Below are positions 380 through 64,000 of a DNA stretch of 64,000 nt, in pieces (positions within the stretch are counted from its first letter, which is position 1; every line of letters starts with the position of its first letter). The translations under genes were made by a program, and so were the position numbers. The DNA is taken from IMG/VR virus record IMGVR_UViG_3300032307_000731, positions 51,164 through 115,163 of that record; one strand, written 5' to 3'. Source of the DNA: a virus. Under the pieces are notes generated by a model, which worked only from the letters and a program-made list of their open reading frames with translations, searched no databases and was not told the origin of the DNA.

Positions 380-1501
380 TTATATTACGTAAATTTGTCG
401 AGGCATTGCTCTAAATTTCATTTGTTTGTTTAAGTTTTCTGCGATTAACGCTTCTCGTTCCATTACTTTTTCAGGTCTTAATCTTGTTAACCATCCTTCG
501 GCACCTGTAAGTTCTTCAAGTAATTTTGTTTTTTCATCCTTTGCCTCAGTTGATAAAGATTGGTAATCCATCGTTAATTCACTATCAGGTGTTTTAAGAT
601 TTCCACTATATTTTCCTCTAACTCTTGCTAAAGTTTCTTTACAATATGCCGTAAACCATCTTCTAACCCATTGTTGTCCCGGAACGTTTAGGTCTTCCCA
701 ACTTAATTCTTCAAGTGGTACATCTGTTGGTAATTTAATTACATCAGGATTATTTTTTAAACAATCCGCTCTATTGTCAGGTGTTACATCATAATACCAA
801 TACCAAACTGCTTTACCAACATATTGTCCATAACTTGACCAGTTGAATCTTCCTCCCGGTGTATTGTATAAGTGAATGTTTTTCTTACCATCAGGTAAAC
901 CTGTTATTCTATATGTTAAAGAGCCACCTAAAATTCTGTTAAGAATATTTGATTCTTGTGCTCTGATTAAGTAATCGAATCCTGACATCATAAAGTAAGA
1001 CCCCTGATTACCCATTTGAGCAAAACCTGCTTCACTAGCACCAAGTCCAACACCACCAAAAGGACCTGCCATACCACCTAATCCAAGATTATATGGACGG
1101 TCACTAAACCATAAAAGTTCGTTAACTTCTCTACCTGCGGGAATTTCATATGTTTGGACATTCTTCTCAAGAATAAAATAATCTTTCTTTAACACCCAAG
1201 GACCTTCAGTTTGAAGACCGACGATTTTAGAATACGAATAACTAAACTGTTGTTCAAAATCCATGGTTCGAGTAATCAAAGCTTTTGCAACTGATTTCTC
1301 ATTCATGTTTAGGTTAACTAAATTAACCCATTGACTATCTATTAACCATTGAAGAACATATTCTTCATAGTCACCTATAGATAATTCCATTAACGAGTCC
1401 ATCATTTCATCCTCAAGTTCAACACTTCTAAGTGGTGCACCTAATTGATGTTTGACTCTAGTATAAATTTTACTTCTTTCTGGTTCCGGTATAACTGCCA
1501 T
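380..1501 (-). CDS. Neck / head-tail adaptor protein (T4 gp13-like)
   Basis: N-term 'VKHQLGAPLRSVELEDEMM' and C-term 'WVRRWFTAYCKETLARVRGKYSG...EAKDEKTKLLEEL' resemble gp13 family termini. Confidence 0.8.
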   Translation of the reverse strand: MAVIPEPERSKIYTRVKHQLGAPLRSVELEDEMMDSLMELSIGDYEEYVLQWLIDSQWVNLVNLNMNEKSVAKALITRTMDFEQQFSYSYSKIVGLQTEGPWVLKKDYFILEKNVQTYEIPAGREVNELLWFSDRPYNLGLGGMAGPFGGVGLGASEAGFAQMGNQGSYFMMSGFDYLIRAQESNILNRILGGSLTYRITGLPDGKKNIHLYNTPGGRFNWSSYGQYVGKAVWYWYYDVTPDNRADCLKNNPDVIKLPTDVPLEELSWEDLNVPGQQWVRRWFTAYCKETLARVRGKYSGNLKTPDSELTMDYQSLSTEAKDEKTKLLEELTGAEGWLTRLRPEKVMEREALIAENLNKQMKFRAMPRQIYVI

Positions 1502-1524: not shown

Positions 1525-3057
1525 TTATTGTATATCATATAATAAAGAATCTAATGGAAATAAAAAGTTACCATTAACAATTACAGGTTTTTTATCAAAA
1601 ACTAAAACATTTTTACCTTTTTGAAAAATCATTAAATCCGTTTTATACATTTTAACACTTGCGGTTCCCTCAAGTAAAATACCCTCATCTGTTATCTTTT
1701 TTTCTCGGAAAGGTTTAACTTGAGCGGTTTTAGTTACACCATCTTTGGTTATCTCTAAATCAATTCCACCAATTCCATCTCTTTTACTTCCAAGTTCACC
1801 AACAATTTCAACTTTAACACCTTTACCAAAATATCTTCTTAATATTGAAGCTGTTATCTCTTCACGTTTTGAACCCGCAGCATCCTTAACAATTAAGACC
1901 TTTAACAAGTTTTGAAATGTTGAACTCTCTCGATTAAATATTTTAAATTTATAATAGTTAATTGCTGAAACAAATCTTGTAGCTTCTTTTTTTTGTTCTT
2001 CAATATTTTTATTTCTAAAATTAATTGGTGGTTCTTTTGTTAATTTTGTAATAACTTGATTTAAATCATTTAATAAAATACAGAATGTTGTGTAATTCGT
2101 ATTTAATTTATTAATTATTGACCGACCTGGTCCTTCTAAGTCATAGACACCTGACATTTGGTTATTACTTGGATTTTGAATATAATTTTCGGAAAAAACT
2201 TCTTTCAAAATCCTATCAATACCATGCATATAAATCCATTTAACATCTTCGTTAGTGTTAAATAAAGTTCTATAAAATTCGTTTTCAGATGATGAACACA
2301 TTTCTGATTTACCTTCACTTAATATTAGTCTCATTTTTGTGGACTCTAAAAGTTTTGTTTCAGTTTTCATTTCATATAATTTGGAAACAAAATTCCAATT
2401 CACAACTTTCCAAAAGTTTGAGATATACTCATCTCTCTTATTCCTATACTTTAGATAGTAAGCGTGTTCCCATAAATCTAATCCTAATAGTGGGAATCCA
2501 CCACCTTCGATAACATTCATTAGTGGGTTATCTTGGTTTGGGGTAGACATAATTTTTAAAGTATTTCTTGATGTTAAAACTAACCATACCCAACCCGAAC
2601 CAAATCGTTCTTTTGCAATTTTTTCAAATTCTTTTTTAAAGGTAGGAAAACTACCATATTGTTTGGTAATTTTATTTAAAAGTTCCCCTTTAAGTTTTGT
2701 GGGTGTTGGTGATAACATATTCCAAAACAATGCGTGGTTAAATGCACCTCCGGCATTATTTCGAATTGTTTTATCAAATCGACTAATTGTTTTAATTATT
2801 TGAATTAGTTCTAAATCCCCGTATTTTTTCTTTGAAAGAGCGTCATTCAATTTATCCACGTATCCCTTGTAATGTTTGTTGTAGTGAAATTCCATTGTTT
2901 CGGGGTCAATGAATTGTTTCAAGGCTGAGTAAGAGTAAGGTAATTTTTCAATCCCTATTTTCTTCATTTCTGTAATCAACAGATTTTTTTCCTTAAGTAC
3001 GTGGTTCCCAAGGATTGTTGTTTCTAATTGTTGAATTTTTTGTTCTATTTTTTTCAT
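1525..3057 (-). CDS. Mn/Fe superoxide dismutase fused to a C-terminal PD-(D/E)XK-like domain
   Basis: LPYSYSAL, HYNKH, NNAGGAFNHALFW, FGSGWVWL, NQDNP, DLWEHAYY metal-ligand motifs; ~280 extra C-terminal aa with 'GIDLEI...AQVK'. Confidence 0.9.
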   Translation of the reverse strand: MKKIEQKIQQLETTILGNHVLKEKNLLITEMKKIGIEKLPYSYSALKQFIDPETMEFHYNKHYKGYVDKLNDALSKKKYGDLELIQIIKTISRFDKTIRNNAGGAFNHALFWNMLSPTPTKLKGELLNKITKQYGSFPTFKKEFEKIAKERFGSGWVWLVLTSRNTLKIMSTPNQDNPLMNVIEGGGFPLLGLDLWEHAYYLKYRNKRDEYISNFWKVVNWNFVSKLYEMKTETKLLESTKMRLILSEGKSEMCSSSENEFYRTLFNTNEDVKWIYMHGIDRILKEVFSENYIQNPSNNQMSGVYDLEGPGRSIINKLNTNYTTFCILLNDLNQVITKLTKEPPINFRNKNIEEQKKEATRFVSAINYYKFKIFNRESSTFQNLLKVLIVKDAAGSKREEITASILRRYFGKGVKVEIVGELGSKRDGIGGIDLEITKDGVTKTAQVKPFREKKITDEGILLEGTASVKMYKTDLMIFQKGKNVLVFDKKPVIVNGNFLFPLDSLLYDIQ

Positions 3058-3099
3058 ATGTTTGGATTAACCATTACATATAAATAATCAAAAAATAGT

Positions 3100-4854
3100 T
3101 TAACGACGCATTTCATTAATTCTCTTTAATATTTCTTCCGCGGCATCAGCTGTATTTTGATTATCTCCCATGACGGTGGCTATCACTTGTTTTTTATTAT
3201 GTAGTATGTCGTAAATAATACCCTCAATAGTATTTTCAAAAATTGGGTAATAAACTAATACATTATTTTTTTGACCATAACGATATGCTCGGTCTTCCGC
3301 TTGTGCGTGGTCAGATGGTAAAAATGATAAATCATTAAAGATAACAGCTTCGGCGGATGTTAAAGTAATACCAACACCAGCGGCTTTAATATTACCAACA
3401 AATACTTTTACTTTTTCGTTTTCTTGAAATTGGTCCACACTAAATTGTCTTTCAACCTTTGACATTGACCCATCAAGTTTAACCGCAGCTTTCCCAAAAT
3501 GTTCTGTTATTTTATTTAATGAATCAGTAAAATTACAGAATATAATAACTTTTTTATCTTGTTCTATAATGTTCTCAGCTATCTCGATAGTTTGTGCAAT
3601 TTTTTCATCGGCAATAATTTGACGAACTTTGGTCAGTTTGGTAAATTGTACCGTTAAAGATTTTGATTCTTCCGGATTTTTTTCATACCAATTATAGTAG
3701 TCACCCATTACTTCCTCGTATACTTTTGATTTTAATCTCAAATATACTGGTGTAATAATTTTGTCGGGTAAATCTAATACATTTTCTTTTAACCTTCTTA
3801 AGGTTAGACCTACGGTTCTATCTCTCAATTCTTCAAGGTTTGATGCTCCTTGAACGTTCCAAATTTTTCTTGGACCAACTTTAAATTGAAAACCGGCACA
3901 ATAACGAATAACATATGCCATCCAATTCTTGGCAACAGGTGAATCAATTAAACTAAGTAAATTAAAATAATCGATTGGACGGGATGTCATTGGTGTACCG
4001 GTTAACAACCATAATCTATCAACACTCTTGGTGATGTCGTTAATAAGTTTTGTTCTTTGAGCTTGGGCATTTTTGATATAGTGTGCCTCATCAATAATAA
4101 TTAAATCGAATTTGGACATTAAAATTAACGACTCATCTTTTTTCTTAGGGTCGTGAAAATTTTTAATAATATCGTAATTAACAATAACAAAATCATCTTC
4201 TGTACTAAATTGTTTTCCTTCAGATATGAATATACTTCGGTCTGAATAATTTTCTATTTCTCGTTTCCAGTTAATTTTTAAAGTTGCCGGACAAATTATT
4301 AAAATTTTCTTTGCTCCGGTTTCTAACGCGGCTATAATAGTTGATGTGGTTTTACCAAGACCCATATCATCGGCAAGGATAAACTTTTTATTCTCAACTA
4401 ATTTTTGGATTGCCTCTTTTTGATGTTCAAGAGGTGGACGATTAGAATATTTTGAATAATCTATTACAACATCTTTAACCGAATTATCTTTAATGATTGC
4501 GGCTTTTGGTAACCAAAAGTGGTGGAATTCCTCATTCTCAAATACTTTACCCCAAATATGATACGCCTTTTCTTTATCACATAATAGTTTTTCTACCCAA
4601 ACTTTTTGTGGTATTTCCGTGTATAGTTTATCGTCGGCGAGTTTTTGAGCAAAGTAGGCATCAAGTATTACCCATTTTTTTGCAACTTTGGGTTGTTTGT
4701 CATGATTATTAACAATATATTCTGATTGACTCCTTGTTGGATAAAACTTTCTGTTTAATTGAGATTTACGTTTTAATTCAATTAAATAATTATTACCCCC
4801 TTCATAAGTTTCCAATAGGGATAACGCCTTTGACTCTATACTAGTATTTTCCAT
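3100..4854 (-). CDS. SNF2-family helicase/ATPase (SMARCAL1/HARP-like)
   Basis: ADDMGLGKT, DEAH, LLTGTP, AAGVGITL, QAEDRAYRYGQ motifs. Confidence 0.92.
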   Translation of the reverse strand: MENTSIESKALSLLETYEGGNNYLIELKRKSQLNRKFYPTRSQSEYIVNNHDKQPKVAKKWVILDAYFAQKLADDKLYTEIPQKVWVEKLLCDKEKAYHIWGKVFENEEFHHFWLPKAAIIKDNSVKDVVIDYSKYSNRPPLEHQKEAIQKLVENKKFILADDMGLGKTTSTIIAALETGAKKILIICPATLKINWKREIENYSDRSIFISEGKQFSTEDDFVIVNYDIIKNFHDPKKKDESLILMSKFDLIIIDEAHYIKNAQAQRTKLINDITKSVDRLWLLTGTPMTSRPIDYFNLLSLIDSPVAKNWMAYVIRYCAGFQFKVGPRKIWNVQGASNLEELRDRTVGLTLRRLKENVLDLPDKIITPVYLRLKSKVYEEVMGDYYNWYEKNPEESKSLTVQFTKLTKVRQIIADEKIAQTIEIAENIIEQDKKVIIFCNFTDSLNKITEHFGKAAVKLDGSMSKVERQFSVDQFQENEKVKVFVGNIKAAGVGITLTSAEAVIFNDLSFLPSDHAQAEDRAYRYGQKNNVLVYYPIFENTIEGIIYDILHNKKQVIATVMGDNQNTADAAEEILKRINEMRR

Positions 4855-5222
4855 TATTCAAACACACTACCATTACCATAGTTTATTAACAATTCTTCCT
4901 CTTCATTAATATCTCTTAATGCAAAATATACAAATGTTCGTTCTTCATTATTTGTGTACCAATCAACATTTGGTGTTTCAGAGTGATTGTAATATGAACC
5001 ATAACCCAACACCAACGCATGTTCATCCCAATTTTCAGAACGAGGATAGCAAAATGAATAATTTGAAAAAACCGGTATTTTTTCCTTAGAATTTTGAGGA
5101 AAAGAAAGAAAAGGGCATACATCTATTACTTCACCTTTTTTTATGGTTTGTGAAGAAAAAACCCCTAAATTATGTAAGGGACTGTCTTTTAAATATATTT
5201 TAGTTGGAGGACTGATTTTCAT
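4854..5222 (-). CDS. SET-domain protein (lysine methyltransferase)
   Basis: LGVFS..IKKGEVI, YYNHSETPN, FALRDI..EELLINYG SET motifs; stop overlaps SNF2 start (TAATG). Confidence 0.88.
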   Translation of the reverse strand: MKISPPTKIYLKDSPLHNLGVFSSQTIKKGEVIDVCPFLSFPQNSKEKIPVFSNYSFCYPRSENWDEHALVLGYGSYYNHSETPNVDWYTNNEERTFVYFALRDINEEEELLINYGNGSVFE

Positions 5223-5294: not shown

Positions 5295-5807
5295 ATGCAA
5301 AAATTAGTTCCAATAACAAGACTAGGTAAATTCTTTGGTGCTGAAGATTATGCTTTGGATATTGGTATGGGTGAAGAATGGTTATTGGGAGATATGAACT
5401 TTACCGTAATTCTTTACCGTATTGATAGATATAAAACCAAAACGGATGATGTTTATGGTGAGGTAACGGAAGATGGTATTCAATTTATGGCACCTGTTGA
5501 ATTACAAGGATTAGTTCAAGTTATGGCACCAACCTCTAAGAATTATGGAAATTCACGAGTTGAATTACAAGAACCTGGTAATATGAAATTTTCATTGTAT
5601 CAAAAAACTCTTGACGATATGGGTGTTGAGATATTCCAAGGGGATTATCTTGGGTATTATGAAACTGAAGATAGAGTTAGATATTATGTTGTAAGTGATG
5701 ATGGATATGTTAGGTCAGATAATAAACATACATATGGAGGATACAAACCATTCTACAGAAGTGTTGTTGCAACTTATGTAAGTGAAAACGAATTTAGAGG
5801 AATATAA
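5295..5807 (+). CDS. Head closure/neck protein (gp14-like)
   Basis: 'VILYRID..KTKTDDVYGE' resembles the gp14/head-closure motif; beta-rich; structural context. Confidence 0.55.
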   Translation: MQKLVPITRLGKFFGAEDYALDIGMGEEWLLGDMNFTVILYRIDRYKTKTDDVYGEVTEDGIQFMAPVELQGLVQVMAPTSKNYGNSRVELQEPGNMKFSLYQKTLDDMGVEIFQGDYLGYYETEDRVRYYVVSDDGYVRSDNKHTYGGYKPFYRSVVATYVSENEFRGI

Positions 5808-7138: not shown

Positions 7139-8938
7139 ATGAGATTATTAAAATTCCTTAATCAAAATATATTGAATGAGGTTTCTGAAAAAGTTAAGAA
7201 CCAATTATATTCAAAATTTAAAGATGATACTTCTGATAGCCGTGAAGTTATAGTATCATATATTGATTTATTTGACCGATACAAAGATAGTTTGTCTTCT
7301 GATAAGAGAGATATTACAAAATATTCATATAATGAGTTAAAATCATTAGTGGATTCAAAACAAAATGCCAAACTAATTTCTGACATTTTTAAACAATTTA
7401 AGAAAAAAGAAAAAGGAATTGAAAATAATGTATTAAAAAAATACATTAAAAAGTTTTTGGAAATCCAATCAGAACTTCCAAAAGAGTTTCAAGATATAAC
7501 CAAACTAAAATTTTTACAAGTAGTTAAACTAATTGACAAAGCGTATTCTCAAATATTAACTAATAAGATGATTGAAAAATTTTCTGAAGAGAATCCAAAT
7601 TTAACAAAAGACCAAATTGTTTTTTATCTTGACACATATAATGAGAATTTTGATTTAATTCCATTTGAAACAAAAGGTATTGATAAAATGTCTTTTGATG
7701 AGTTGGAACATTTGTTGGATGGGTTAGAAGGAAAAAAAGACGCTACCGACAAAAGCAAAGAAGAGGTCGGTGACATTGATTTGAAATATGACCAAAACAA
7801 TTTGAAAATATTTGCACCAAAAACAAAAGACCAATGTATTCGTTTAAAAAATGGTAGAGGTTGGTGTACTAGTCGTGAAGGTAGTGGTAATATGTATTAC
7901 AATTATAGATTAGGTAGTGAAAGAACTCTTTATTATGTAATTGATGAAGACAAAAGTTTTGATGATTTAAACTTTGCAACCGTAATTCTTGTTGACCCTA
8001 ATGGAAGAAAATCAATGGCAGATAAATCTAACTCGGGAAAATATGGAGGTAGTACTAATTTACCTTGGGATGAGATTGTTTCAAAAGTGCCAAAACTTAA
8101 AGGGTTAGAAAATATTTTTGTACCGGAACCTTTAACTCAACAGGAAAGAGAATTGATTAATACAGTTAAAAATGTAAGGGTTGGTGATAATCCAATGGAG
8201 TCTTTTGAAAACCCACAACAAGTAGAAATGTGGTTAGAGTATAATAGCCCAAATTTAAACGATATTCAATATTCTAATTTAACTCCGGACTTAAAGAAAA
8301 AATACATTGCGTTAGGAATGAACTTAACTTCTCCAATGATTAAATCTTCCGAACCTGAAGTGTTAAAATATTATATTAGTAAAAAAATTGATGTAATTAA
8401 AAATAAGGACATTAGTAGTTTAACGAATGAAGAAATTTCATTATTAGAAACTCCTATGTTGAAAAAACTTAAAGAAGAGTTAAAACCAAAATTTGCAAAT
8501 TCATTAACTTCTAATGGTGATAGATTAATAATTGATGATTTTGAGAGAGGTTCTGCAGCTAAATTTATTAGATTGTATGGGTTAGAGGATTTATTTTCAA
8601 ATATACCTAAAACTATTACAGAATTCCAAATTCAAAATAAAACACAGAACGTGGTTAATATCACAATCCCTCAAGACATTGGAAGGTTTAAAGATTTGGA
8701 TATGATTATGTTAGATAATTGTATAAGTTCTATACCTGATAGTGTTTGTACTTTACCAAAATTAAGATTTTTATCTTTAATTAACAATGAAAGATTAACA
8801 TCCATTCCTGAATGTATTGCCAATTTACCAACGATAATATTTCTTAATCTTAAAAATAGTAAAAATGTAGTTATACCTGAAAACATTAAACAAAGAGGTA
8901 ACGACATGGGTGGCGGAATGTGGGATTTAGGAGAATAA
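7139..8938 (+). CDS. Multidomain protein with helical repeats, a WCTS-motif domain and C-terminal leucine-rich repeats
   Basis: C-term 'IPQDIGRFKDLDMIMLDN / ISSIPDSVCTLPKLRFLSLINN / LTSIPECIANLPTIIFLNL' LRR periodicity. Confidence 0.75.
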   Translation: MRLLKFLNQNILNEVSEKVKNQLYSKFKDDTSDSREVIVSYIDLFDRYKDSLSSDKRDITKYSYNELKSLVDSKQNAKLISDIFKQFKKKEKGIENNVLKKYIKKFLEIQSELPKEFQDITKLKFLQVVKLIDKAYSQILTNKMIEKFSEENPNLTKDQIVFYLDTYNENFDLIPFETKGIDKMSFDELEHLLDGLEGKKDATDKSKEEVGDIDLKYDQNNLKIFAPKTKDQCIRLKNGRGWCTSREGSGNMYYNYRLGSERTLYYVIDEDKSFDDLNFATVILVDPNGRKSMADKSNSGKYGGSTNLPWDEIVSKVPKLKGLENIFVPEPLTQQERELINTVKNVRVGDNPMESFENPQQVEMWLEYNSPNLNDIQYSNLTPDLKKKYIALGMNLTSPMIKSSEPEVLKYYISKKIDVIKNKDISSLTNEEISLLETPMLKKLKEELKPKFANSLTSNGDRLIIDDFERGSAAKFIRLYGLEDLFSNIPKTITEFQIQNKTQNVVNITIPQDIGRFKDLDMIMLDNCISSIPDSVCTLPKLRFLSLINNERLTSIPECIANLPTIIFLNLKNSKNVVIPENIKQRGNDMGGGMWDLGE

Positions 8939-51163: not shown

Positions 51164-52254
51164 TGGAAGATTTTTATAATATTAAGATATCACCGGAAAC
51201 AATATTAGGTGATTTGTCAGTTGTGGATTATCAAGGGACTCCTGTTGGGGTCTATTCTGCTATGACCCAAGTTGTGAGTTCAGGGGTGAACGGAAGTTCA
51301 ATTTTGACAGGACTTACCATTCCAATTTTGATAAGGCAAAGTGCGGTTGATGCGGGATATTATAGTCCTTTTGACGGAGCGGTTTTACAAAAAGATGTTG
51401 TTGCAAATTTTATATTTTCATCCACTACATCCTCAGGTTATACTTACAATGTTTATAACACATCAAATGAATTTCAAAAATTTTTGGATTTATCTGCTTA
51501 TAGAATTGATTGGGGTGATGGTTCACCAAAACAAACAATAACAACTTACGCACCTAATTCAATTAATCATACATACCCTGTTGAGAATAAACAATATGTG
51601 ATTACATTAGAACAGACTAACCCTTGGGGAATTACAAAAGTTTCAAAAACTATTACAACACCATTTAGTGATGTGACAATTTATAATCCTCAAGGAGAGG
51701 CGTTTTTCGCACCATCATCAGGTAATTGGATTGGTACATCAGTGTCTTATGATTATATATTTTCAGGTGATGCGGTTAATGAAGTGTCGGCTCAAACATC
51801 TAACAATTATGTTACGATACCATTTACCATATCGGGTGTTACTAAATCAAGATTAACTGAATTAGAAACTTATGGGGATTTAACAATTAATCAAAGAATT
51901 GGTACTCCGGTTATTAGTAATGGACAAATATGGGGAATGATTACCGATGTTACACCAATCTATACTGCATATACCATCACTCAGATTAATTATTATGATT
52001 ATTTTGATGGTACTACAATATATTTTGAACAATCATCAGGATTAACTGAGAACAATTTAACCTCAACACCAATAACTAAAGATGAAGTTTTATTAAAAGT
52101 TGTTGACCAAGCACAAATACAAACAAATGTTTTTGTTGAAAGAGGTAACAATAGTGCTTATGAAAGAGTTCAAAGAATTGGAGAGGTAGACAATCTTGGT
52201 GACATGATTAATTATGGGTACGGATTTTTTAATGTAGTTAACAAACAAAATTAA
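51163..52254 (+). CDS. Putative virion protein with a PKD-like Ig domain
   Basis: 'YRIDWGDGS...INHTYP...YVITL' PKD signature. Confidence 0.6.
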   Translation: MEDFYNIKISPETILGDLSVVDYQGTPVGVYSAMTQVVSSGVNGSSILTGLTIPILIRQSAVDAGYYSPFDGAVLQKDVVANFIFSSTTSSGYTYNVYNTSNEFQKFLDLSAYRIDWGDGSPKQTITTYAPNSINHTYPVENKQYVITLEQTNPWGITKVSKTITTPFSDVTIYNPQGEAFFAPSSGNWIGTSVSYDYIFSGDAVNEVSAQTSNNYVTIPFTISGVTKSRLTELETYGDLTINQRIGTPVISNGQIWGMITDVTPIYTAYTITQINYYDYFDGTTIYFEQSSGLTENNLTSTPITKDEVLLKVVDQAQIQTNVFVERGNNSAYERVQRIGEVDNLGDMINYGYGFFNVVNKQN

Positions 52255-56193: not shown

Positions 56194-58328
56194 TGGCGTT
56201 TAATTATATCATAAATGTAACGGGGGATTGTCAAAATAATTCGAGTGGGGTAATTGACTTATTAGTCTACGACGGCTCATCACCATATACTATAGAATGG
56301 ATTTCTCCGGTATTGACGACAAATACTCAAGTAACCGGAACGGTGACGAAAACAGGATTACTTAGTAATACTTATGCTATTAAAGTTACGGATTCTACAT
56401 TACCTGATAATCAAATTGAATATATCAATATTCCGGTATCAAGTGGGGTCTGTTGTAGTATTTTAGGTGTTCAAGATACAACTTGTTCTCAAAATAATGG
56501 TTCTGTTACAGGAACCTCAACAACTCAATACTCTTCAACAAATTATTATTTATATCACGGGGATGGTGTTTATAGTCAATCTGCGACAACAAATCAAAAT
56601 AGTGTTGTCTTTGGAAGTTTAACGGCTGGAACTTATTATATGACAGTTCAAGATTTAGGAGGATGTACGGGTCGTAGTCAAAATTTTATTGTTGAAGAAT
56701 CGGTACCTTTAAATTATGGTTTATATATGGTTCCGAACTCATCTTGTGGAGGACAGCCATTAGGTAAATTAACTGTAACTGGTTTGACGGGACAACCACC
56801 TTTCACTTATTTATGGGACAATGGTGCGACAGGGTCTACAATTACAGGTTTAACTTCGGGTTCTTATTTTGTTACGGTAACAGATGGATATGGTTGTGAA
56901 TTAAATCAAGGTTCAACAATTGTTGATGTTAACCCAATAGGACTTGGTTTTTTTACTGCAACTCCCCCAACCTGTTTTTCTGCTAATGGGGTGTTGACCC
57001 TTAATATTACAGGAGGAACTGCACCTTATTATTATTCAGCTTCAACGGGTCAAGTTGAAATTTCTTATGCTAATTCTTTTTCAATTTCGGGATTGTCTTC
57101 GGGTAGTTATGGTTTTTTAGTGACTGACGCGGGATTTTGTCAATTAAGTGCGGAATCATCATTGGTTTCTCCAAATGGAATCGCATCCGTATCAGTACAA
57201 ACATTTAATTCAACTTGTTCAAGTACAAATGGACAAATAACAATATCAGTAATTGGTGGAGTTACACCATATACTTATACCTTAATTTACCCAACAGGAG
57301 ATGTTGTTGATACAAGTGGAAGTCAAACGGTTCAACTATTTGACAATTTATCTGCAGGTACTTATTCAGTTGGTGTTAGTGATGATTCAGGTTGTTCATA
57401 TTTGGATGAGGTTTACATCATGACTGATAATAAGTATACAATATCAACAACGGTTACAGGTACTTCTTGTAATCAAGTAAATGGTTTAATTAATGTTGTA
57501 GTTAATACAGGTGCAACCTTACCACTTAGTTATTCTATTGATAACGGGTTATATGATATTTTAAATACAAATTTAACAGCGGTAACCTTTAATAATATTT
57601 CCGCTGGTACACATACGGTTACCGTAACAGATGCCTCAGGATGTGCTCAATCTACTAACGTATTAATTACATCAAGTGAACGATTAGATTACTCATTATA
57701 TAGTACATCTTGTGGTACGGGTAATAGTGGTAAAATAACTGCATTTATAAACTCAGGTGTACCACCATTTTCTTTCTATTGGTCTAATAACGTTCCAAAT
57801 AATCCACAACAAATTCAAGTATCGGGTTTAACAGGTGGAACTTATAGTTTAACTATTGTAGATAGTGGGGGATGTTCCTTAGTTAGAAACGCTTTGATTA
57901 GTTGTAATGCTAACTTAACATCATATCAAACTTACGTTATGGGTGAGGAAGTTTTTAATATTGAATCTCCAACTAAGTTTGGTTTATTACAAATGTTAAA
58001 TGAAGGTTTTTATGATTTAACATTGGATAATGAAGGGTGTGATTTAGTAAGTGCGACATTTACTGCAAAAGTATCGGTAACTCCTCTTAATTTAACTACA
58101 AGTGACACATTCTTTACAACAACTTCATTAAATGTTTATCCAACGGATAATCAATATTATGATACAATTAGAGAATTATTATTAACAATTCCAGGTGTTG
58201 GAAATGTTATTATAAACGCTCTAACAAATCAAATAACAATTGAGACAACAAGAGGTAATGATACTTTAAATGGTCAAGAGATTATTATTGATTTGATTAT
58301 TGAGTATGATATAATGTGTTTGAATTAA
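56193..58328 (+). CDS. SprB-repeat-like fibre/adhesin protein
   Basis: Repeated ~75-85-aa units 'C...NG.I.....GGT.PYTY.W......GL..GTY.VTVTD..GC'. Confidence 0.75.
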   Translation: MAFNYIINVTGDCQNNSSGVIDLLVYDGSSPYTIEWISPVLTTNTQVTGTVTKTGLLSNTYAIKVTDSTLPDNQIEYINIPVSSGVCCSILGVQDTTCSQNNGSVTGTSTTQYSSTNYYLYHGDGVYSQSATTNQNSVVFGSLTAGTYYMTVQDLGGCTGRSQNFIVEESVPLNYGLYMVPNSSCGGQPLGKLTVTGLTGQPPFTYLWDNGATGSTITGLTSGSYFVTVTDGYGCELNQGSTIVDVNPIGLGFFTATPPTCFSANGVLTLNITGGTAPYYYSASTGQVEISYANSFSISGLSSGSYGFLVTDAGFCQLSAESSLVSPNGIASVSVQTFNSTCSSTNGQITISVIGGVTPYTYTLIYPTGDVVDTSGSQTVQLFDNLSAGTYSVGVSDDSGCSYLDEVYIMTDNKYTISTTVTGTSCNQVNGLINVVVNTGATLPLSYSIDNGLYDILNTNLTAVTFNNISAGTHTVTVTDASGCAQSTNVLITSSERLDYSLYSTSCGTGNSGKITAFINSGVPPFSFYWSNNVPNNPQQIQVSGLTGGTYSLTIVDSGGCSLVRNALISCNANLTSYQTYVMGEEVFNIESPTKFGLLQMLNEGFYDLTLDNEGCDLVSATFTAKVSVTPLNLTTSDTFFTTTSLNVYPTDNQYYDTIRELLLTIPGVGNVIINALTNQITIETTRGNDTLNGQEIIIDLIIEYDIMCLN

Positions 58329-58331
58329 GAT

Positions 58332-58652
58332 ATGACACAATTAGAGATACGAAGTATATCGGGGGGTACTTTACCAATAAATATATATGCTTGTGATGTA
58401 TATCAAAATCAATGTGTTCTATTTGGAACTATTAATACTACTGTTCCACCGGTTTTAGTCTTTAATCTGCCACCTCAATTTAATAATATTCCTGCTATTG
58501 GTATTTTATTGAGGGATGCTGTTGGTTGTGAAAGATTTGAAGTTGGGATTTGTGGGGATTCGGGTGTTGGTAAAATATTCCAAAACATCGATGATGATTA
58601 TGTATTCCAATTTATGGACTTTATTATTTACCAATTTGAGGGGCCAAATTAA
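58332..58652 (+). CDS. Small hypothetical protein related to the SprB-like unit
   Basis: 'ISGGTLPINIYACD...LRDAVGC' echoes the GGT.P/D..GC pattern. Confidence 0.55.
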   Translation: MTQLEIRSISGGTLPINIYACDVYQNQCVLFGTINTTVPPVLVFNLPPQFNNIPAIGILLRDAVGCERFEVGICGDSGVGKIFQNIDDDYVFQFMDFIIYQFEGPN

Positions 58653-58702
58653 AAATTGGAATTGAATTGAGATTTCAAGGTATTTATTATTAAAAAAGAA
58701 CC

Positions 58703-61700
58703 ATGCCGATATATCAAAGACTGACCGACCGACAATTTTCACCTAGTGCGGTTACACTTAACGATTTAATACATATTGTAATTACTGGTGATACTTCACA
58801 AAGTCCTCAGGGTTCCTCGTTTAAAGTGACCTTGGGTGATGTTGCGCATGTTATGTCGGGAGGAACCGGAACGTCAGGTACAAGTGGAACTTCGGGGATT
58901 AATGGTACCTCAGGTACGAGTGGAACTTCGGGAGTTAATGGTACCTCAGGTACAAATGGTACGTCAGGTACTTCAGGTACAAGTGGTGTTGATGGAACTA
59001 ATGGTACATCAGGAACGAGTGGTATAAATGGAACTTCAGGTACTGATGGAACATCAGGAACTAGTGGAACATCAGGTACTACAGGTACGAGTGGTATTGA
59101 CGGGACTAATGGAACATCGGGAACATCGGGAGTAAATGGTACATCGGGTACTAGCGGTACGACAGGAACTAGTGGTACATCAGGAACAACAGGAACAAGT
59201 GGTACAAGTGGTATTAATGGGACTAATGGTACGAGCGGAACTTCAGGTGTTAATGGTACCTCAGGAACAAGTGGTACAACAGGTACTTCAGGTACTTCAG
59301 GTACAACAGGTACCTCAGGAACAAGTGGAACTTCGGGTGTAAATGGAACTTCAGGTACTAGTGGTGTAAATGGAACTTCAGGTACAACAGGTACAAGTGG
59401 GACTTCAGGTACAACAGGTACATCGGGAACTAGTGGTATTGACGGAACTAATGGGACATCAGGTACAAGTGGTGTAAATGGAACTTCAGGAACAACAGGT
59501 ACTTCAGGAACATCAGGAACAACAGGTACATCGGGAACTAGCGGTACAACAGGAACAAGTGGAACAAGTGGTGTTAACGGAACATCAGGTACTTCGGGAA
59601 CTACAGGTACTTCAGGTACTTCAGGTACAACAGGAACTAGCGGTACAACAGGTACTTCAGGAACAAGTGGTATTGATGGAACAAGTGGTACAACGGGAAC
59701 TTCAGGAACAACAGGGACTAGTGGTACAAGTGGAACAACGGGTACATCAGGGACTTCAGGAATAGATGGTACATCGGGAACATCAGGAACAACAGGTACT
59801 TCAGGAACATCAGGAACAACAGGTACTTCAGGTACTAGTGGAATCGATGGGACTTCAGGTACAAGTGGGACAACAGGTACCTCAGGAACAAGTGGAACAT
59901 CAGGAACAACAGGTACTTCAGGAACATCAGGAACTACAGGTACTTCAGGTACTAGTGGAATTGATGGGACTTCAGGTACATCAGGAACTGATGGGACAAG
60001 TGGAACTTCAGGAACAAGTGGTACAACAGGTACTTCAGGAACAACAGGTACTTCAGGAACATCAGGAACTTCGGGAATTGATGGGACATCAGGAACAAGT
60101 GGTACAACAGGTACAAGTGGTACAAGTGGTACGACGGGTACAAGTGGAACAAGTGGGACAAGTGGGATAGATGGTACTTCAGGAACATCAGGAACATCAG
60201 GAACAACAGGTACGAGTGGAACATCAGGAACAACAGGTACGAGTGGAACAACAGGTACTTCAGGAACTAGCGGTATTGACGGAACGTCAGGTACGTCAGG
60301 AACTGATGGTACGAGTGGAACAACAGGAACTAGTGGTACATCAGGAACTACAGGTACCTCAGGAACTAGTGGTACATCAGGTATTGACGGAACATCAGGG
60401 ACTAGTGGTACAGATGGAACTTCAGGGACAAGCGGTACAACGGGAACTAGCGGTACATCAGGAACAACAGGTACAAGTGGAACTAGCGGTACAACAGGTA
60501 CTAGTGGAACATCAGGTATTGATGGGACATCAGGTACAACCGGTACATCAGGTACATCAGGTACATCAGGTACTACAGGTACTAGTGGTACATCAGGTAT
60601 TGATGGAACATCAGGGACAAGTGGTACAGATGGAACTTCAGGGACAAGTGGTACAACAGGAACATCAGGTACAACAGGCACAAGTGGAACTTCAGGAACA
60701 GATGGTACTTCGGGAACAAGTGGAACAACAGGTACCTCGGGAACAAGTGGTACAGATGGTACTTCAGGTACTAGCGGTACGACAGGAACAAGTGGAACTT
60801 CAGGAATTGATGGAACTTCAGGAACTAGCGGAACCGATGGTACTTCAGGAACTAGCGGTACAGATGGGACTTCAGGGACTAGCGGTACTACAGGTACATC
60901 AGGAACAAGTGGAACTACAGGTACTTCAGGTACAAGTGGTATTGACGGAACTTCAGGAACAAGTGGTACAGATGGAACTTCAGGAACTTCGGGTACAACA
61001 GGAACTTCGGGAACTAGCGGTACTTCAGGTATTGATGGAACTTCAGGAACTAGCGGAACCGATGGTACTTCAGGAACTAGCGGTACAACAGGAACATCAG
61101 GAACTAGTGGAACTACGGGTACTTCAGGTACAAGTGGGACTAGTGGTACTTCAGGAACGGATGGTACATCAGGAACTACAGGTACTTCAGGTACAAGTGG
61201 GACTAGTGGTACAACAGGTACATCAGGAACTACAGGAACTTCGGGAACAACAGGTACAAGTGGAACTAGCGGTACTACAGGTACATCAGGTACATCAGGG
61301 ACAACAGGAACAAGCGGAACTTCAGGAACAAGTGGTGATGATGGTATATCGGGAGGACAAAATTTATTCTTCAACCAATCAGTGGTACAAGGAGTAACTC
61401 CATATAAAGAATTAGGTGAATTTACAGATGGGCTTCCACAAAGTACTGTAACTGTAAATCTAACCGCGAATCAACAAAATGTTTTAATTAATGGTGGATT
61501 TATTACAGACCCGGGAAAACCTGGAGTTTTTGTAATCCCAAATGGTTTATGGCACGCATATTGTTATTTCACCAAAAATGCTGAAAATGATAACCTAAGT
61601 GTTTATTACATTGTTTCGAAATATACTACAGGAGGGACAAAAACTACGTTATTTACATCAAGTGCAGTTCAAATTGGATGGGATACTAATAATACAACGC

Positions 61701-64000
61701 CTGTTGAGATAAAAATAAATGCCTTACCAACAACTGAAATATTAGATATTACAGACAGAATTATTGTCGATTTATATGTTAACAATGGTGATAACCAAAG
61801 TAGAACAGCTACCTTTTACTCAGAAGGTACTTTAAATTATTCATATTTAGTAACAACATTAGCAACTCCATCAGGAACAAGTGGTACTTCAGGGACGAGT
61901 GGTACTTCAGGAACAACTGGAACATCAGGTACTTCAGGAACAAGCGGTACTAGTGGTACAACGGGTACTTCAGGAACATCGGGTACGAGTGGTACAACAG
62001 GTACCTCAGGTACAAGTGGTGTAAATGGGACTTCAGGAACTAGCGGTACAACAGGGACTTCAGGGACTTCAGGTACAACAGGTACTTCAGGAACAAGTGG
62101 AACAACCGGTACAAGTGGTACTTCAGGAACAACAGGTACAAGTGGAACATCAGGAACAACCGGTACAAGTGGAACATCAGGAACGACAGGTACAAGTGGT
62201 ACTTCAGGAACGACAGGTACAAGTGGAACAACAGGTACGAGTGGGACTTCGGGTGTTAATGGTACAAGTGGAACAAGTGGTACTACAGGTACAAGTGGTA
62301 CTTCAGGAAGTTCAGGTACTTCTCCAACAGGATTAGTTGCATCTAATTACGTTGCTAAAGGTGTTAAGGGAGGTACTATTCAAACTATAACAAATGGAAG
62401 TGACCAAGTTGTAACATTTGTTGATGAGTTTGACCCTAATGGTTGGATATCATCTAATAAATTTCAACCAACAATTGAAGGTTATTACAATATTCAAGTT
62501 GCAGTATGGTGGTACCCAGCATCAACAACATCAGGACAAAATAATGTTCAGCTTAGAAAAAATGGTAGTACACAAGTTGCAATTCAACAATTTCCACTTA
62601 ATACTACTGAGGGATATGGACAAGAAATTGATATTGTAATGTATTTTAACGGTTCTACTGATTATATTGAAGTTACTGCTTATACATCAAATCCAACATC
62701 TCAAGATATACATGGTGAGAGTTCGGGTACTTGGATTACGGGGTCATTAATTGTTGGTGGTGGAACAAGTGGTACATCAGGTACTAGTGGAACGTCAGGA
62801 ACAAGTGGAACTACGGGTACTTCAGGTACAAGCGGAACTTCAGGTGTTAATGGTACGTCAGGAACAAGCGGTACAACAGGAACATCAGGTACTAGTGGAA
62901 CAACGGGTACAAGTGGTACTTCAGGTACAAGTGGTGTTAATGGAACTTCAGGAACTAGTGGGACTTCGGGTACTACAGGAACAAGTGGTACGACAGGTAC
63001 TTCAGGAACAAGTGGAACTTCGGGTATTAATGGTACGTCAGGTACATCGGGAACAACAGGTACAAGCGGAACTTCAGGAGTTAATGGTACGTCAGGTACA
63101 TCGGGAACAACAGGTACGAGCGGAACTTCAGGTGTTAATGGGACCTCAGGTACATCAGGTACTTCGGGAACAACAGGTACGAGCGGAACTTCAGGTGTTA
63201 ATGGGACCTCAGGTACTTCAGGAACAACAGGTACCTCAGGGACTAGTGGTACGACAGGGACATCAGGGACTAGTGGTACTACAGGTACAAGTGGTACTTC
63301 GGGTATTAACGGAACTTCAGGTACAAGTGGAACTTCAGGAACTACAGGAACAAGTGGAACTTCGGGTGTAAATGGAACGAGTGGTACTTCAGGAACATCA
63401 GGAACAACAGGTACGAGTGGAACTAGTGGAACAACAGGTACATCAGGAACAAGTGGAACTTCGGGTGTTAATGGTACTTCAGGAACTAGCGGAACGACAG
63501 GAACCTCAGGTACAACAGGAACCTCAGGTACTTCAGGAACTACAGGTACAAGTGGAACTTCAGGTACGACAGGGACTTCGGGAACTACAGGTACTAGTGG
63601 AACATCGGGAGTGAATGGTACATCAGGAACTAGCGGTACTTCGGGTATTAACGGAACTTCAGGTACAAGTGGAACAACAGGAACATCAGGTACAACAGGA
63701 ACATCAGGAACATCAGGAACAACAGGTACGAGTGGAACTTCAGGTACTACCGGAACAAGTGGAACATCTGGAGTAAATGGAACGTCAGGAACAACAGGGA
63801 CTTCGGGAACTACAGGTACTAGTGGAACATCGGGAGTGAATGGTACATCAGGAACTAGCGGAACAACAGGGACTTCGGGAACTACAGGAACAAGTGGGAC
63901 TTCGGGTACTACAGGTACAAGTGGAACTTCAGGTGTTAATGGTACATCAGGGACTAGCGGTACGACAGGTACTTCGGGAACTACAGGTACAAGTGGAACT
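58703..64000 (+). CDS. Giant (Gly-Thr-Ser/Thr)n collagen-like fibre protein with internal globular domains including C1q-like; 3'-truncated, >1766 aa
   Basis: Manual translation [30 protein letters not shown]...[13 protein letters not shown]...; frame stays consistent through 61331, 62321 and 63998; TATTTAT at 58681. Confidence 0.88.
58868..61345 (+). repeat. 9-bp (GGN ACN TCN/AGY/ACN) coding repeat, block 1
   Basis: About 275 G-X-Y triplets: GTS/GTT punctuated by GIN, GVN, GID, GTD. Confidence 0.92.
61874..62323 (+). repeat. GTS/GTT coding repeat, block 2
   Basis: About 50 triplets between two globular domains. Confidence 0.9.
62762..64000 (+). repeat. GTS/GTT coding repeat, block 3 (runs off the window)
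   Basis: Continuous triplets punctuated by GVN/GIN. Confidence 0.9.

Follow-up and report, generated by a model that had tools for sequence, protein, structure and literature searches.

Superoxide dismutases (SODs) encoded by phages are usually recorded as auxiliary metabolic genes and have received little further attention, and the capsid-targeting sequence of phage T4 has so far been fused to foreign proteins only artificially, by researchers. The T4 protease gp21 cleaves after L/I-X-E (PMC9026906); to it, internal proteins and the enzyme Alt lose their N-terminal capsid-targeting leaders (PMC9026906; PMC9958956); the propeptide of T4 gp23 is 65 residues long, and longer propeptides with several sites are found in giant phages (PMC5694885). 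The SOD-like protein A45R of vaccinia virus is a virion component, according to a title cited in PMC10583209. An SOD, a nuclease-like module and a leader that resembles such propeptides come together in one gene of a 64,000-nucleotide stretch of viral DNA (the window; positions 51,164 to 115,163 of the IMG/VR virus record IMGVR_UViG_3300032307_000731). The product, SOD-X, consists of a 30-residue leader, an Mn-type SOD, a short linker and a C-terminal module of 262 residues, called X below. Each part is of a known kind (a phage SOD, a PD-(D/E)XK nuclease, T4-type propeptides); for their combination, for the X family and for the insertion of a cassette behind the leader, no description was found in the literature searched or in public database annotation. 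Public databases name the protein only “Fe-Mn family superoxide dismutase,” which leaves half of it unannotated. The reading that we favor, with a probability of about 0.45, is that SOD-X is a pro-protein that would be cut by the prohead protease of its lineage, with the SOD and the nuclease loaded into the capsid and delivered together with the DNA.

Is the fusion genuine? A first reading of the window, made from the letters and their open reading frames (the sequence-only reading), saw one open reading frame (ORF) joining an SOD to a nuclease-like part and named an assembly chimera or a lost stop as what would speak against it. The ORF is borne out, and so is the fusion. At least 567 IMG/VR stretches encode a relative of X; of the 80 loci that were fetched for counting, 69 carry SOD and X in a single ORF of 509-513 aa. 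A search with residues 240-510 returned 290 clusters; more than 100 of these are 509-510-aa proteins in which both SOD domains are present, and their contigs reach 293 kb. Fused forms are also found among the deep branches. Database entries of 280-397 aa that resemble separate genes do occur, as they would if assembly had produced a chimera, or if the loss of a stop or a sequencing error had run two genes together. But the same single ORF recurs in 69 independent loci from many samples, over 100 protein clusters agree in length, and the short entry P0144 begins at a Met within the linker, as the gene call of a truncated copy would; an artefact can be dismissed for all practical purposes. Because at least this one entry starts inside the linker of the fused protein, entries of 280-292 aa were not counted as genuine stand-alone X genes. 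Other X architectures have N-terminal extensions, giving proteins of 583-1113 aa; no significant Pfam domain was found in the extensions.

In all relatives examined, the gene sits in an invariable slot: SNF2 helicase, (SOD)X, a 373-aa head-tail adaptor-like protein, and a protein of ~111 aa. The earlier claim that it lies directly upstream of a neck gene is in keeping with this arrangement and with the match of the downstream gene to a head-tail adaptor PHROG (Table 1). The leader is real protein as well: residues 1-30 are conserved in homologues in which Met31 is replaced by Ala or another residue, which rules out Met31 as the true start codon. A megablast search of GenBank phages with the first 12 kb of the window found nothing; a tblastn search with the X protein of a megaphage found only the two records of that megaphage itself, so within that collection, and at that sensitivity, X is not seen in any cultured phage; and an IMG/VR locus search with the distant stand-alone X members P0160 and P0217 found none.

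In the SOD part, Pfam places Sod_Fe_N at residues 37-116 (E 1.4e-21; 77.2 bits vs. a gathering cut-off of 27) and Sod_Fe_C at residues 123-226 (E 5.9e-40; 135.9 bits vs. 20.9), and E. coli SodA aligns over 203 residues with 47% identity (E 7e-63). In this alignment, the metal ligands H26, H81, D167 and H171 of the E. coli enzyme correspond to H58, H108, D194 and H198, and the second-sphere residues H30, Y34 and Q146 correspond to H62, Y66 and the Mn-type Q175; NNAGG lies at residues 100-104 and NQD at residues 174-176. Thus all that had been claimed for a complete Mn-type SOD (four ligands, NNAGG, NQD) was found, and the four ligands, Y66 and Q175 are invariant across 13 fused homologues. The NCBIfam equivalog scores stay below the cut-offs for SodA ([Mn] 197 vs. 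363 bits) and SodB ([Fe] 167 vs. 348), with the Mn-type model outranking the Fe-type one: judged by its sequence, the SOD part is a divergent member of the family, nearer the Mn type. It also differs in charge. The pI of the SOD part is 9.3-9.7 in all fused homologues (9.5 in the window protein), vs. 6.4 for E. coli SodA; the phage proteome has a median of 5.3-5.4, with just 2-5% of its proteins at 9.5 or above. A basic SOD part fits an enzyme that sits on DNA, and the earlier suggestion of an SOD tethered to DNA is compatible with these values. Cellular SODs had been described as stand-alone proteins of ~200 aa, consistent with the 206 residues of E. coli SodA.

What is the other half? The sequence-only reading took its C-terminal region for a variant of the PD-(D/E)XK core with D...QxK, and proposed a Foldseek search as a check; the search, a structure model and conservation all agree with it. 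The X family, with 144 representatives at the 50% identity level (exhaustive HMMER search of a protein collection), was aligned using 56 diverse members; residue numbers refer to the full-length protein. E399, D433 and K448 are invariant, and G395, D427, G431, Q446, Y471 and F478 are conserved in ≥90% of members, so that the motif G..E ... D..GGID ... QVK is present as described. Identity among members is only 20-30%, yet E, D and QxK are invariant or almost invariant, so that X is probably still catalytic. An AlphaFold2 model built on the family alignment (pLDDT 94.6, pTM 0.89) puts these residues where a nuclease would have them; in module numbering, in which E399, D433 and K448 are E164, D198 and K213, E399 is on a long helix (144-178), D433 is at the start of strand 2, before strand 199-203, and Q446-x-K448 is on strand 3 (206-214).

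The top Foldseek match of the X model is the homing endonuclease I-Ssp6803I (2ost; probability 1.0, E 8e-3), followed by Hjc. VIA-align, run against 48,161 representative chains, ranks Hjc first (2wcw; Z 7.7, rmsd 3.8, 101 residues); I-Ssp6803I (2ost) has Z 7.2, and further matches are HhaI, NhoI, tRNA-splicing endonucleases, a RecU-type protein, DpnI, MspI, PvuII and VRR-NUC. Among the 33 top rows, 32 are PD-(D/E)XK-fold proteins or the related tRNA-splicing endonucleases, aligned to model residues 157-275. As modelled, the last ~120 residues of X have the PD-(D/E)XK nuclease fold with an Mrr-like E...D...QxK motif. Sequence searches are far less telling: Pfam, PHROGs, PADLOC, NCBIfam and PDB sequences yielded no significant match to the X module, and a PHROG of unknown function (5018) weakly matches 9 of the 56 members. 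Matches to MC4 (E 0.004), ShosA and DUF6602 were below cut-off and were treated as noise. X is an uncharacterized PD-(D/E)XK family with no significant Pfam match. Its first 144 residues form a helical subdomain which, modelled alone, has pLDDT 89.7; Foldseek and VIA-align found nothing above Z 4.7 for it in the PDB, which is no proof of a new fold.

Which came first, the SOD or X? In 9 of the 80 fetched loci, X is a 309-aa protein that lacks the SOD. One of the nine lies in a complete 318-kb genome (G003), in which no SOD domain was found anywhere. The G003 protein begins with a leader that ends in I-N-E, continues with MKKI.IEKL, and then enters the end of the linker, IISE/GKSERCS: the ~200 residues of the SOD are precisely missing, and the leader and the linker end are retained. 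On a maximum-likelihood tree of the X module, SOD-less X branches from deep within the fused clades; its sister is L037/L035 (support 97/90), and the branches there are very short. Stand-alone X proteins that are only distantly related, among them one of 290 aa from the 735-kb megaphage LR756501, lie outside the fused clade. Two state changes suffice on this tree, one gain of the SOD and one recent loss, the direction of change depending on the midpoint root. The older gene is X together with its leader, which occurs throughout the lineage in a fixed place between the SNF2 helicase and the head-tail adaptor; the SOD entered it in frame, as a cassette that was gained once and lost once without loss of X. 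The parts also differ in pace: relative to the window protein, median identity falls from 75% in the SOD to 48% and 44% in the halves of X, 44% in the linker and 30% in the leader; the SOD evolves much slower than its carrier and is thus under strong purifying selection. Reading the gene as an SOD-nuclease fusion was right as far as the fusion goes; it overlooked that the leader belongs with X, that the SOD is dispensable, and that X occurs without it.

Of the nine (L/I)-x-E motifs in the window protein, a comparison with 48 unique fused homologues shows only four to be conserved. One, LWE, belongs to the buried SOD active site and has an invariant middle residue. The others mark the domain borders: residues 28-30 are kept in 48 of 48 homologues, residues 236-238 in 45 of 48 and residues 246-248 in 48 of 48, each with four to six different middle residues and within segments that are only 30-44% identical. 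Cuts after E30 and E238 would yield an SOD of 208 aa, its natural size, and a cut after E248 would leave X starting just before its first structured helix. The sequence-only reading had proposed a polyprotein with protease sites in its linker, KLLE/STKMRLILSE. The linker is there, and the near-invariant junction motifs and the T4-type protease of relatives lend the polyprotein idea real though indirect support; cleavage itself is a prediction. In three complete relatives (G001-G003; 318-322 kb), Peptidase_S77, the family of T4 gp21, is found with E ~1e-25 and a gp23-type capsid protein with E ~1e-65. This capsid protein has L-I-N-E at residues 58-61, followed by A, directly before its conserved body and near the length of the T4 gp23 propeptide. 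The prohead protease, the capsid protein and the ribosomal protein bS21 were not found in the record from which the window comes, a 115-kb fragment estimated to be 38% complete, and their non-detection is attributed to its being a fragment.

Motifs of this kind also gather at protein N-termini in the 322-kb relative G001: an (L/I)-x-E with its Glu at residues 6-10 occurs in 56 of 282 proteins (53 BLAST families), with a background of ~19 proteins per five-residue bin, i.e., one third of that number. The consensus, MKx(L/I)(L/I)TES, looks like a lineage-wide tag, possibly a signal for capsid targeting or for a protease; the sole likeness of the SOD-X leader to it is the terminal LITE-type motif. 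Some otherwise different G001 proteins share a longer N-terminal block, MKK..RLTESDL..VK..I.E; examples of the N-terminal tag are found at L100-L116 and, in the window, e.g., at 5807, 6196 and 6600. G001 also has a second, divergent X paralogue (L128:1441-2397, 318 aa; profile E 4e-28). Its neighbors are the prohead protease on one side and an acidic scaffold-like ORF on the other, with the capsid gene close downstream. The protein opens with MKITISE/G, and its G..E / D / G.D / QVK motif is intact; at the prohead protease of G002 and G003 this paralogue is absent.

When would the gene be expressed? TATTTAT, noted earlier as a motif of the SOD-X gene's own and present there (Table 1), occurs 39 times in the window, and 13 copies lie 11-44 nt upstream of gene starts. 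All 13 genes so preceded belong to the structural modules (the adaptor, SOD-X, the sheath, a baseplate-region gene and large ORFs around them), and the sites include those upstream of 10273, 16033, 17858, 43305 and 52298 (+). Within the window, the motif precedes no replication gene, nor the SNF2 or SET gene. In 50 of 50 related loci, it is found within 60 nt upstream of (SOD)X, mostly at -23 to -30. This distribution fits a candidate late promoter element of the lineage and late transcription of SOD-X. A gene with a TATTTAT 22 nt upstream is at 7139-8938 (+); it encodes a protein of 599 aa whose C-terminal part reads like leucine-rich repeats (LPKLRFLSL.NN..LTSIPE...LNL).

The identity of the phage comes from its relatives. 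The 115-kb record is collinear with G001, sharing 73 of 101 ORFs at a median identity of 55%, and the collinearity starts a few kb past the position of the G001 capsid gene. The window has a GC content of ~31%, and in G001-G003 a bS21 gene stands beside the prohead protease (L096-L098 with L091-L093). Freshwater phages with bS21 have genomes of 293-331 kb with 31.0-33.7% GC, and lake Bacteroidetes are their predicted hosts (PMC9723584); superoxide goes unmentioned in that description. The bS21 gene, the size and the GC content place the phage of the window, with a genome of about 320 kb, among these published jumbo phages, and its predicted host is a member of the Bacteroidota.

In the favored sequence of events, the SOD-X gene would be transcribed late, together with the structural genes, and the leader would carry the protein into the prohead. 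There a protease of the T4 gp21 type would cut after E30, E238 and/or E248, releasing a basic SOD (~208 aa, its native size) and a nuclease of ~262 aa. Both products would remain with the packaged DNA and enter the host alongside it; the SOD would then remove superoxide at the start of infection in an aerobic Bacteroidota host, and the nuclease would act on DNA. Put in this full form, in which a T4-type protease turns the precursor into a DNA-associated Mn-SOD and an Mrr-like nuclease inside the capsid, and both are injected with the genome, the proposal is held slightly more tentatively than delivery of the two enzymes as such. Cleavage and presence in the virion are plausible predictions; several points weigh against them. 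The protease is predicted from collinear relatives, the record being a 38% fragment that lacks the head module. A three-residue motif is by itself weak evidence, and an HMM of the leader, run on G000 and G001, recovers SOD-X alone. Some 90 kb separate the gene from the head module, and its neighborhood holds a helicase and a SET gene. The Z values of the fold searches are middling (<8), so that the identification of the fold depends on how uniform the hits are and on the invariant motif. Finally, an active nuclease packed with a genome, where it would have to be harmless, has no precedent known to us.

SOD-X could instead be an uncleaved, bifunctional late enzyme of the cytoplasm, with X acting as a debranching nuclease at the packaging stage or as a Holliday-junction resolvase, like T4 endonuclease VII, and with the SOD as a passenger auxiliary gene that fused to it by chance and may aid dimerization; the junction motifs would then be kept for structural reasons. 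This is the chief competitor of the delivery model, although we consider it unlikely. Fe/Mn SODs are dimers or tetramers, and resolvases work as dimers. Hjc structures recur among the VIA-align matches (Z 7.7, 6.9, 6.0, 5.8 and 5.6), together with the RecU-type 1y1o (Z 5.6). Branched DNA is to be expected from the UvsX-like recombinase, the SSB and the DnaB-like helicase that the window encodes; RuvC, RusA, Hjc and T7 endonuclease I were not detected in the three complete relatives, one of which has a single sub-threshold match to Endonuclease_7. X is, moreover, a single-copy core gene with a late-type motif beside head-tail joining genes. But its motif is QxK, as in Mrr, rather than the ExK of Hjc; the Pfam Hjc model has no match at E 0.1 in the same three relatives, all of which carry X; and the non-detection of known resolvase families does not mean that none is present. 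Nor does a cytoplasmic enzyme account for the invariance of the junction (L/I)-x-E motifs alone, with their middle residues free to vary, for the retention of the leader after loss of the SOD, or for the place of an X paralogue within the head cassette.

Two further views of X leave the fate of the SOD aside. X could be an Mrr-like endonuclease in the style of type IV enzymes, in which the helical N-subdomain reads some feature of host DNA (e.g., methylation) and the nuclease degrades that DNA, from the cytoplasm or after delivery, with the SOD as an independent add-on; such a role overlaps both localizations, and as an explanation of the protein it is considerably less probable than a cytoplasmic resolvase. 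A sensor-like N-domain followed by a nuclease is the layout of modification-dependent enzymes, D...QxK is the PD-QXK signature of the Mrr catalytic domain (PMC11037411), and an hhalign comparison of the X profile with E. coli Mrr lines up E, GGID and QxK. Yet every link to Mrr is below significance: the hhalign P is 0.057; Mrr_cat_2 matches 1 of the 56 X members (E 0.0045), below the Pfam cut-off, and no Mrr model of Pfam matches the window protein; and Mrr_cat and Mrr_cat_2, the first named families by ESM-Atlas features, score 0.87-0.88, which at <0.9 is a lead only. The N-subdomain is unlike any known reader of DNA modification (best Z 4.7). X might instead be a catalytically silent, DNA-binding protein of the structure or of head completion, e.g., one that binds DNA ends like T4 gp2. 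The protein is basic, and its gene adjoins the head-tail adaptor and has the late-type motif; however, a set of E/D/QxK residues that is invariant or nearly so among members only 20-30% identical, and the lack of similarity of X to any structural PHROG, make such a role improbable.

Table 1. SOD-X, its parts and its neighbors in the window (nucleotide positions).
Feature	Positions	Strand	Remarks
Whole ORF: leader, SOD, linker, X module	1525-3057	(-)	510 aa, uninterrupted; stop codon 1525-1527
N-terminal leader, residues 1-30, ending I-T-E (nt 2968-2976)	2968-3057	(-)	kept in SOD-less homologue
Mn-type Fe/Mn SOD cassette, residues 31-238	2344-2967	(-)	Pfam, NCBIfam, SodA alignment
Linker KLLE/STKMRLILSE, residues 235-248	2314-2355	(-)	two (L/I)-x-E motifs; low pLDDT in model
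L-L-E, residues 236-238, also the last three residues of the SOD part	2344-2352	(-)	
L-S-E, residues 246-248, end of linker	2314-2322	(-)	
Helical N-subdomain of X, residues 249-392, with invariant C254	1882-2313	(-)	model
PD-(D/E)XK core of X, residues 393-510	1528-1881	(-)	model, motif, fold matches
Catalytic-type E399, D427, D433, Q446, K448	1714-1863	(-)	
TATTTAT, late-promoter-like	3080-3086	(-)	29 nt upstream of ATG
Head-tail adaptor-like gene, downstream neighbor	380-1501	(-)	PHROG match E 1.7e-9
SNF2-family helicase, upstream neighbor	3100-4854	(-)	no TATTTAT of its own

Two features of the surroundings are recorded here for their own sake. A SET-domain gene lies two genes from X (4854-5222 (-)), and in the unrelated megaphage LR756501 a SET gene that is 36% identical (L001:3302-3739 (-)) adjoins the stand-alone X; the proximity of SET and X in both phages could be a functional link or chance. 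At the far end of the window (58000-64000), GC content rises from ~31% to 40-45% over a very long ORF (58703-64000+) that is open at the window end and shows repeated triplets of the GGTAC/GGAAC type.

Why would such a gene matter? In an abundant group of lake phages, whose predicted hosts are Bacteroidota, X has a fixed place among the late genes, and the gain and loss of an SOD cassette between leader and cargo could serve as a natural experiment on how phages recruit host enzymes for delivery. If the delivery model is true, the SOD would be, as far as we know, the first antioxidant enzyme delivered by a bacteriophage virion; a host gene would have been captured by simple in-frame insertion behind an existing capsid-targeting leader; and phages, like giant viruses of eukaryotes, would bring their own protection against oxidative stress. 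If cleavage and packaging are not true, X would still be a candidate for the missing resolvase of these genomes.

How does SOD-X compare with the systems it resembles? With E. coli SodA it shares 47% identity over the full SOD length, the four ligands and the Mn-type second sphere; here, however, the SOD is embedded between a leader and a 262-aa module and has a pI of ~9.5 instead of 6.4. With the Mrr catalytic domain (Mrr_cat/Mrr_cat_2), X shares the E of helix 1, the G-x-D of strand 2 and the Q-x-K of strand 3, but has no significant sequence match to it, and the N-terminal partner of its nuclease domain is helical, with no known fold, rather than a winged helix or SRA. The archaeal and phage Hjc resolvases and I-Ssp6803I are the best structural matches to the X core; unlike them, X has Q for the second acidic residue, an extra N-subdomain of 144 aa, and an all-beta C-terminal extension instead of helices, and it has no Pfam Hjc match.

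The closest parallels for the predicted fate of SOD-X are the internal proteins and Alt of T4 and the head proteins of phiKZ and SPN3US, with which it shares a leader ending in L/I-x-E and a lineage that has gp21- and gp23-family genes (PMC9026906; PMC5694885; PMC9958956). As with Alt, the cargo would be an enzyme, probably expressed late. Processing, however, is a prediction here; the 30-aa leader is not common to other proteins, and in contrast to T4 IPII and IPIII, which share a targeting sequence, it has no relatives in G000 or G001. To our knowledge, two enzymes from one precursor have not been described for T4. In carrying an SOD at all, the phage resembles Megavirus and the chlorovirus PBCV-1, whose virus-encoded SODs are thought to counter reactive oxygen early in infection. 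But the SODs of these viruses and the A45R protein of vaccinia are of the Cu,Zn type, stand alone and serve viruses of eukaryotes, whereas this one is of the Mn type, belongs to a phage and is fused to a nuclease module.

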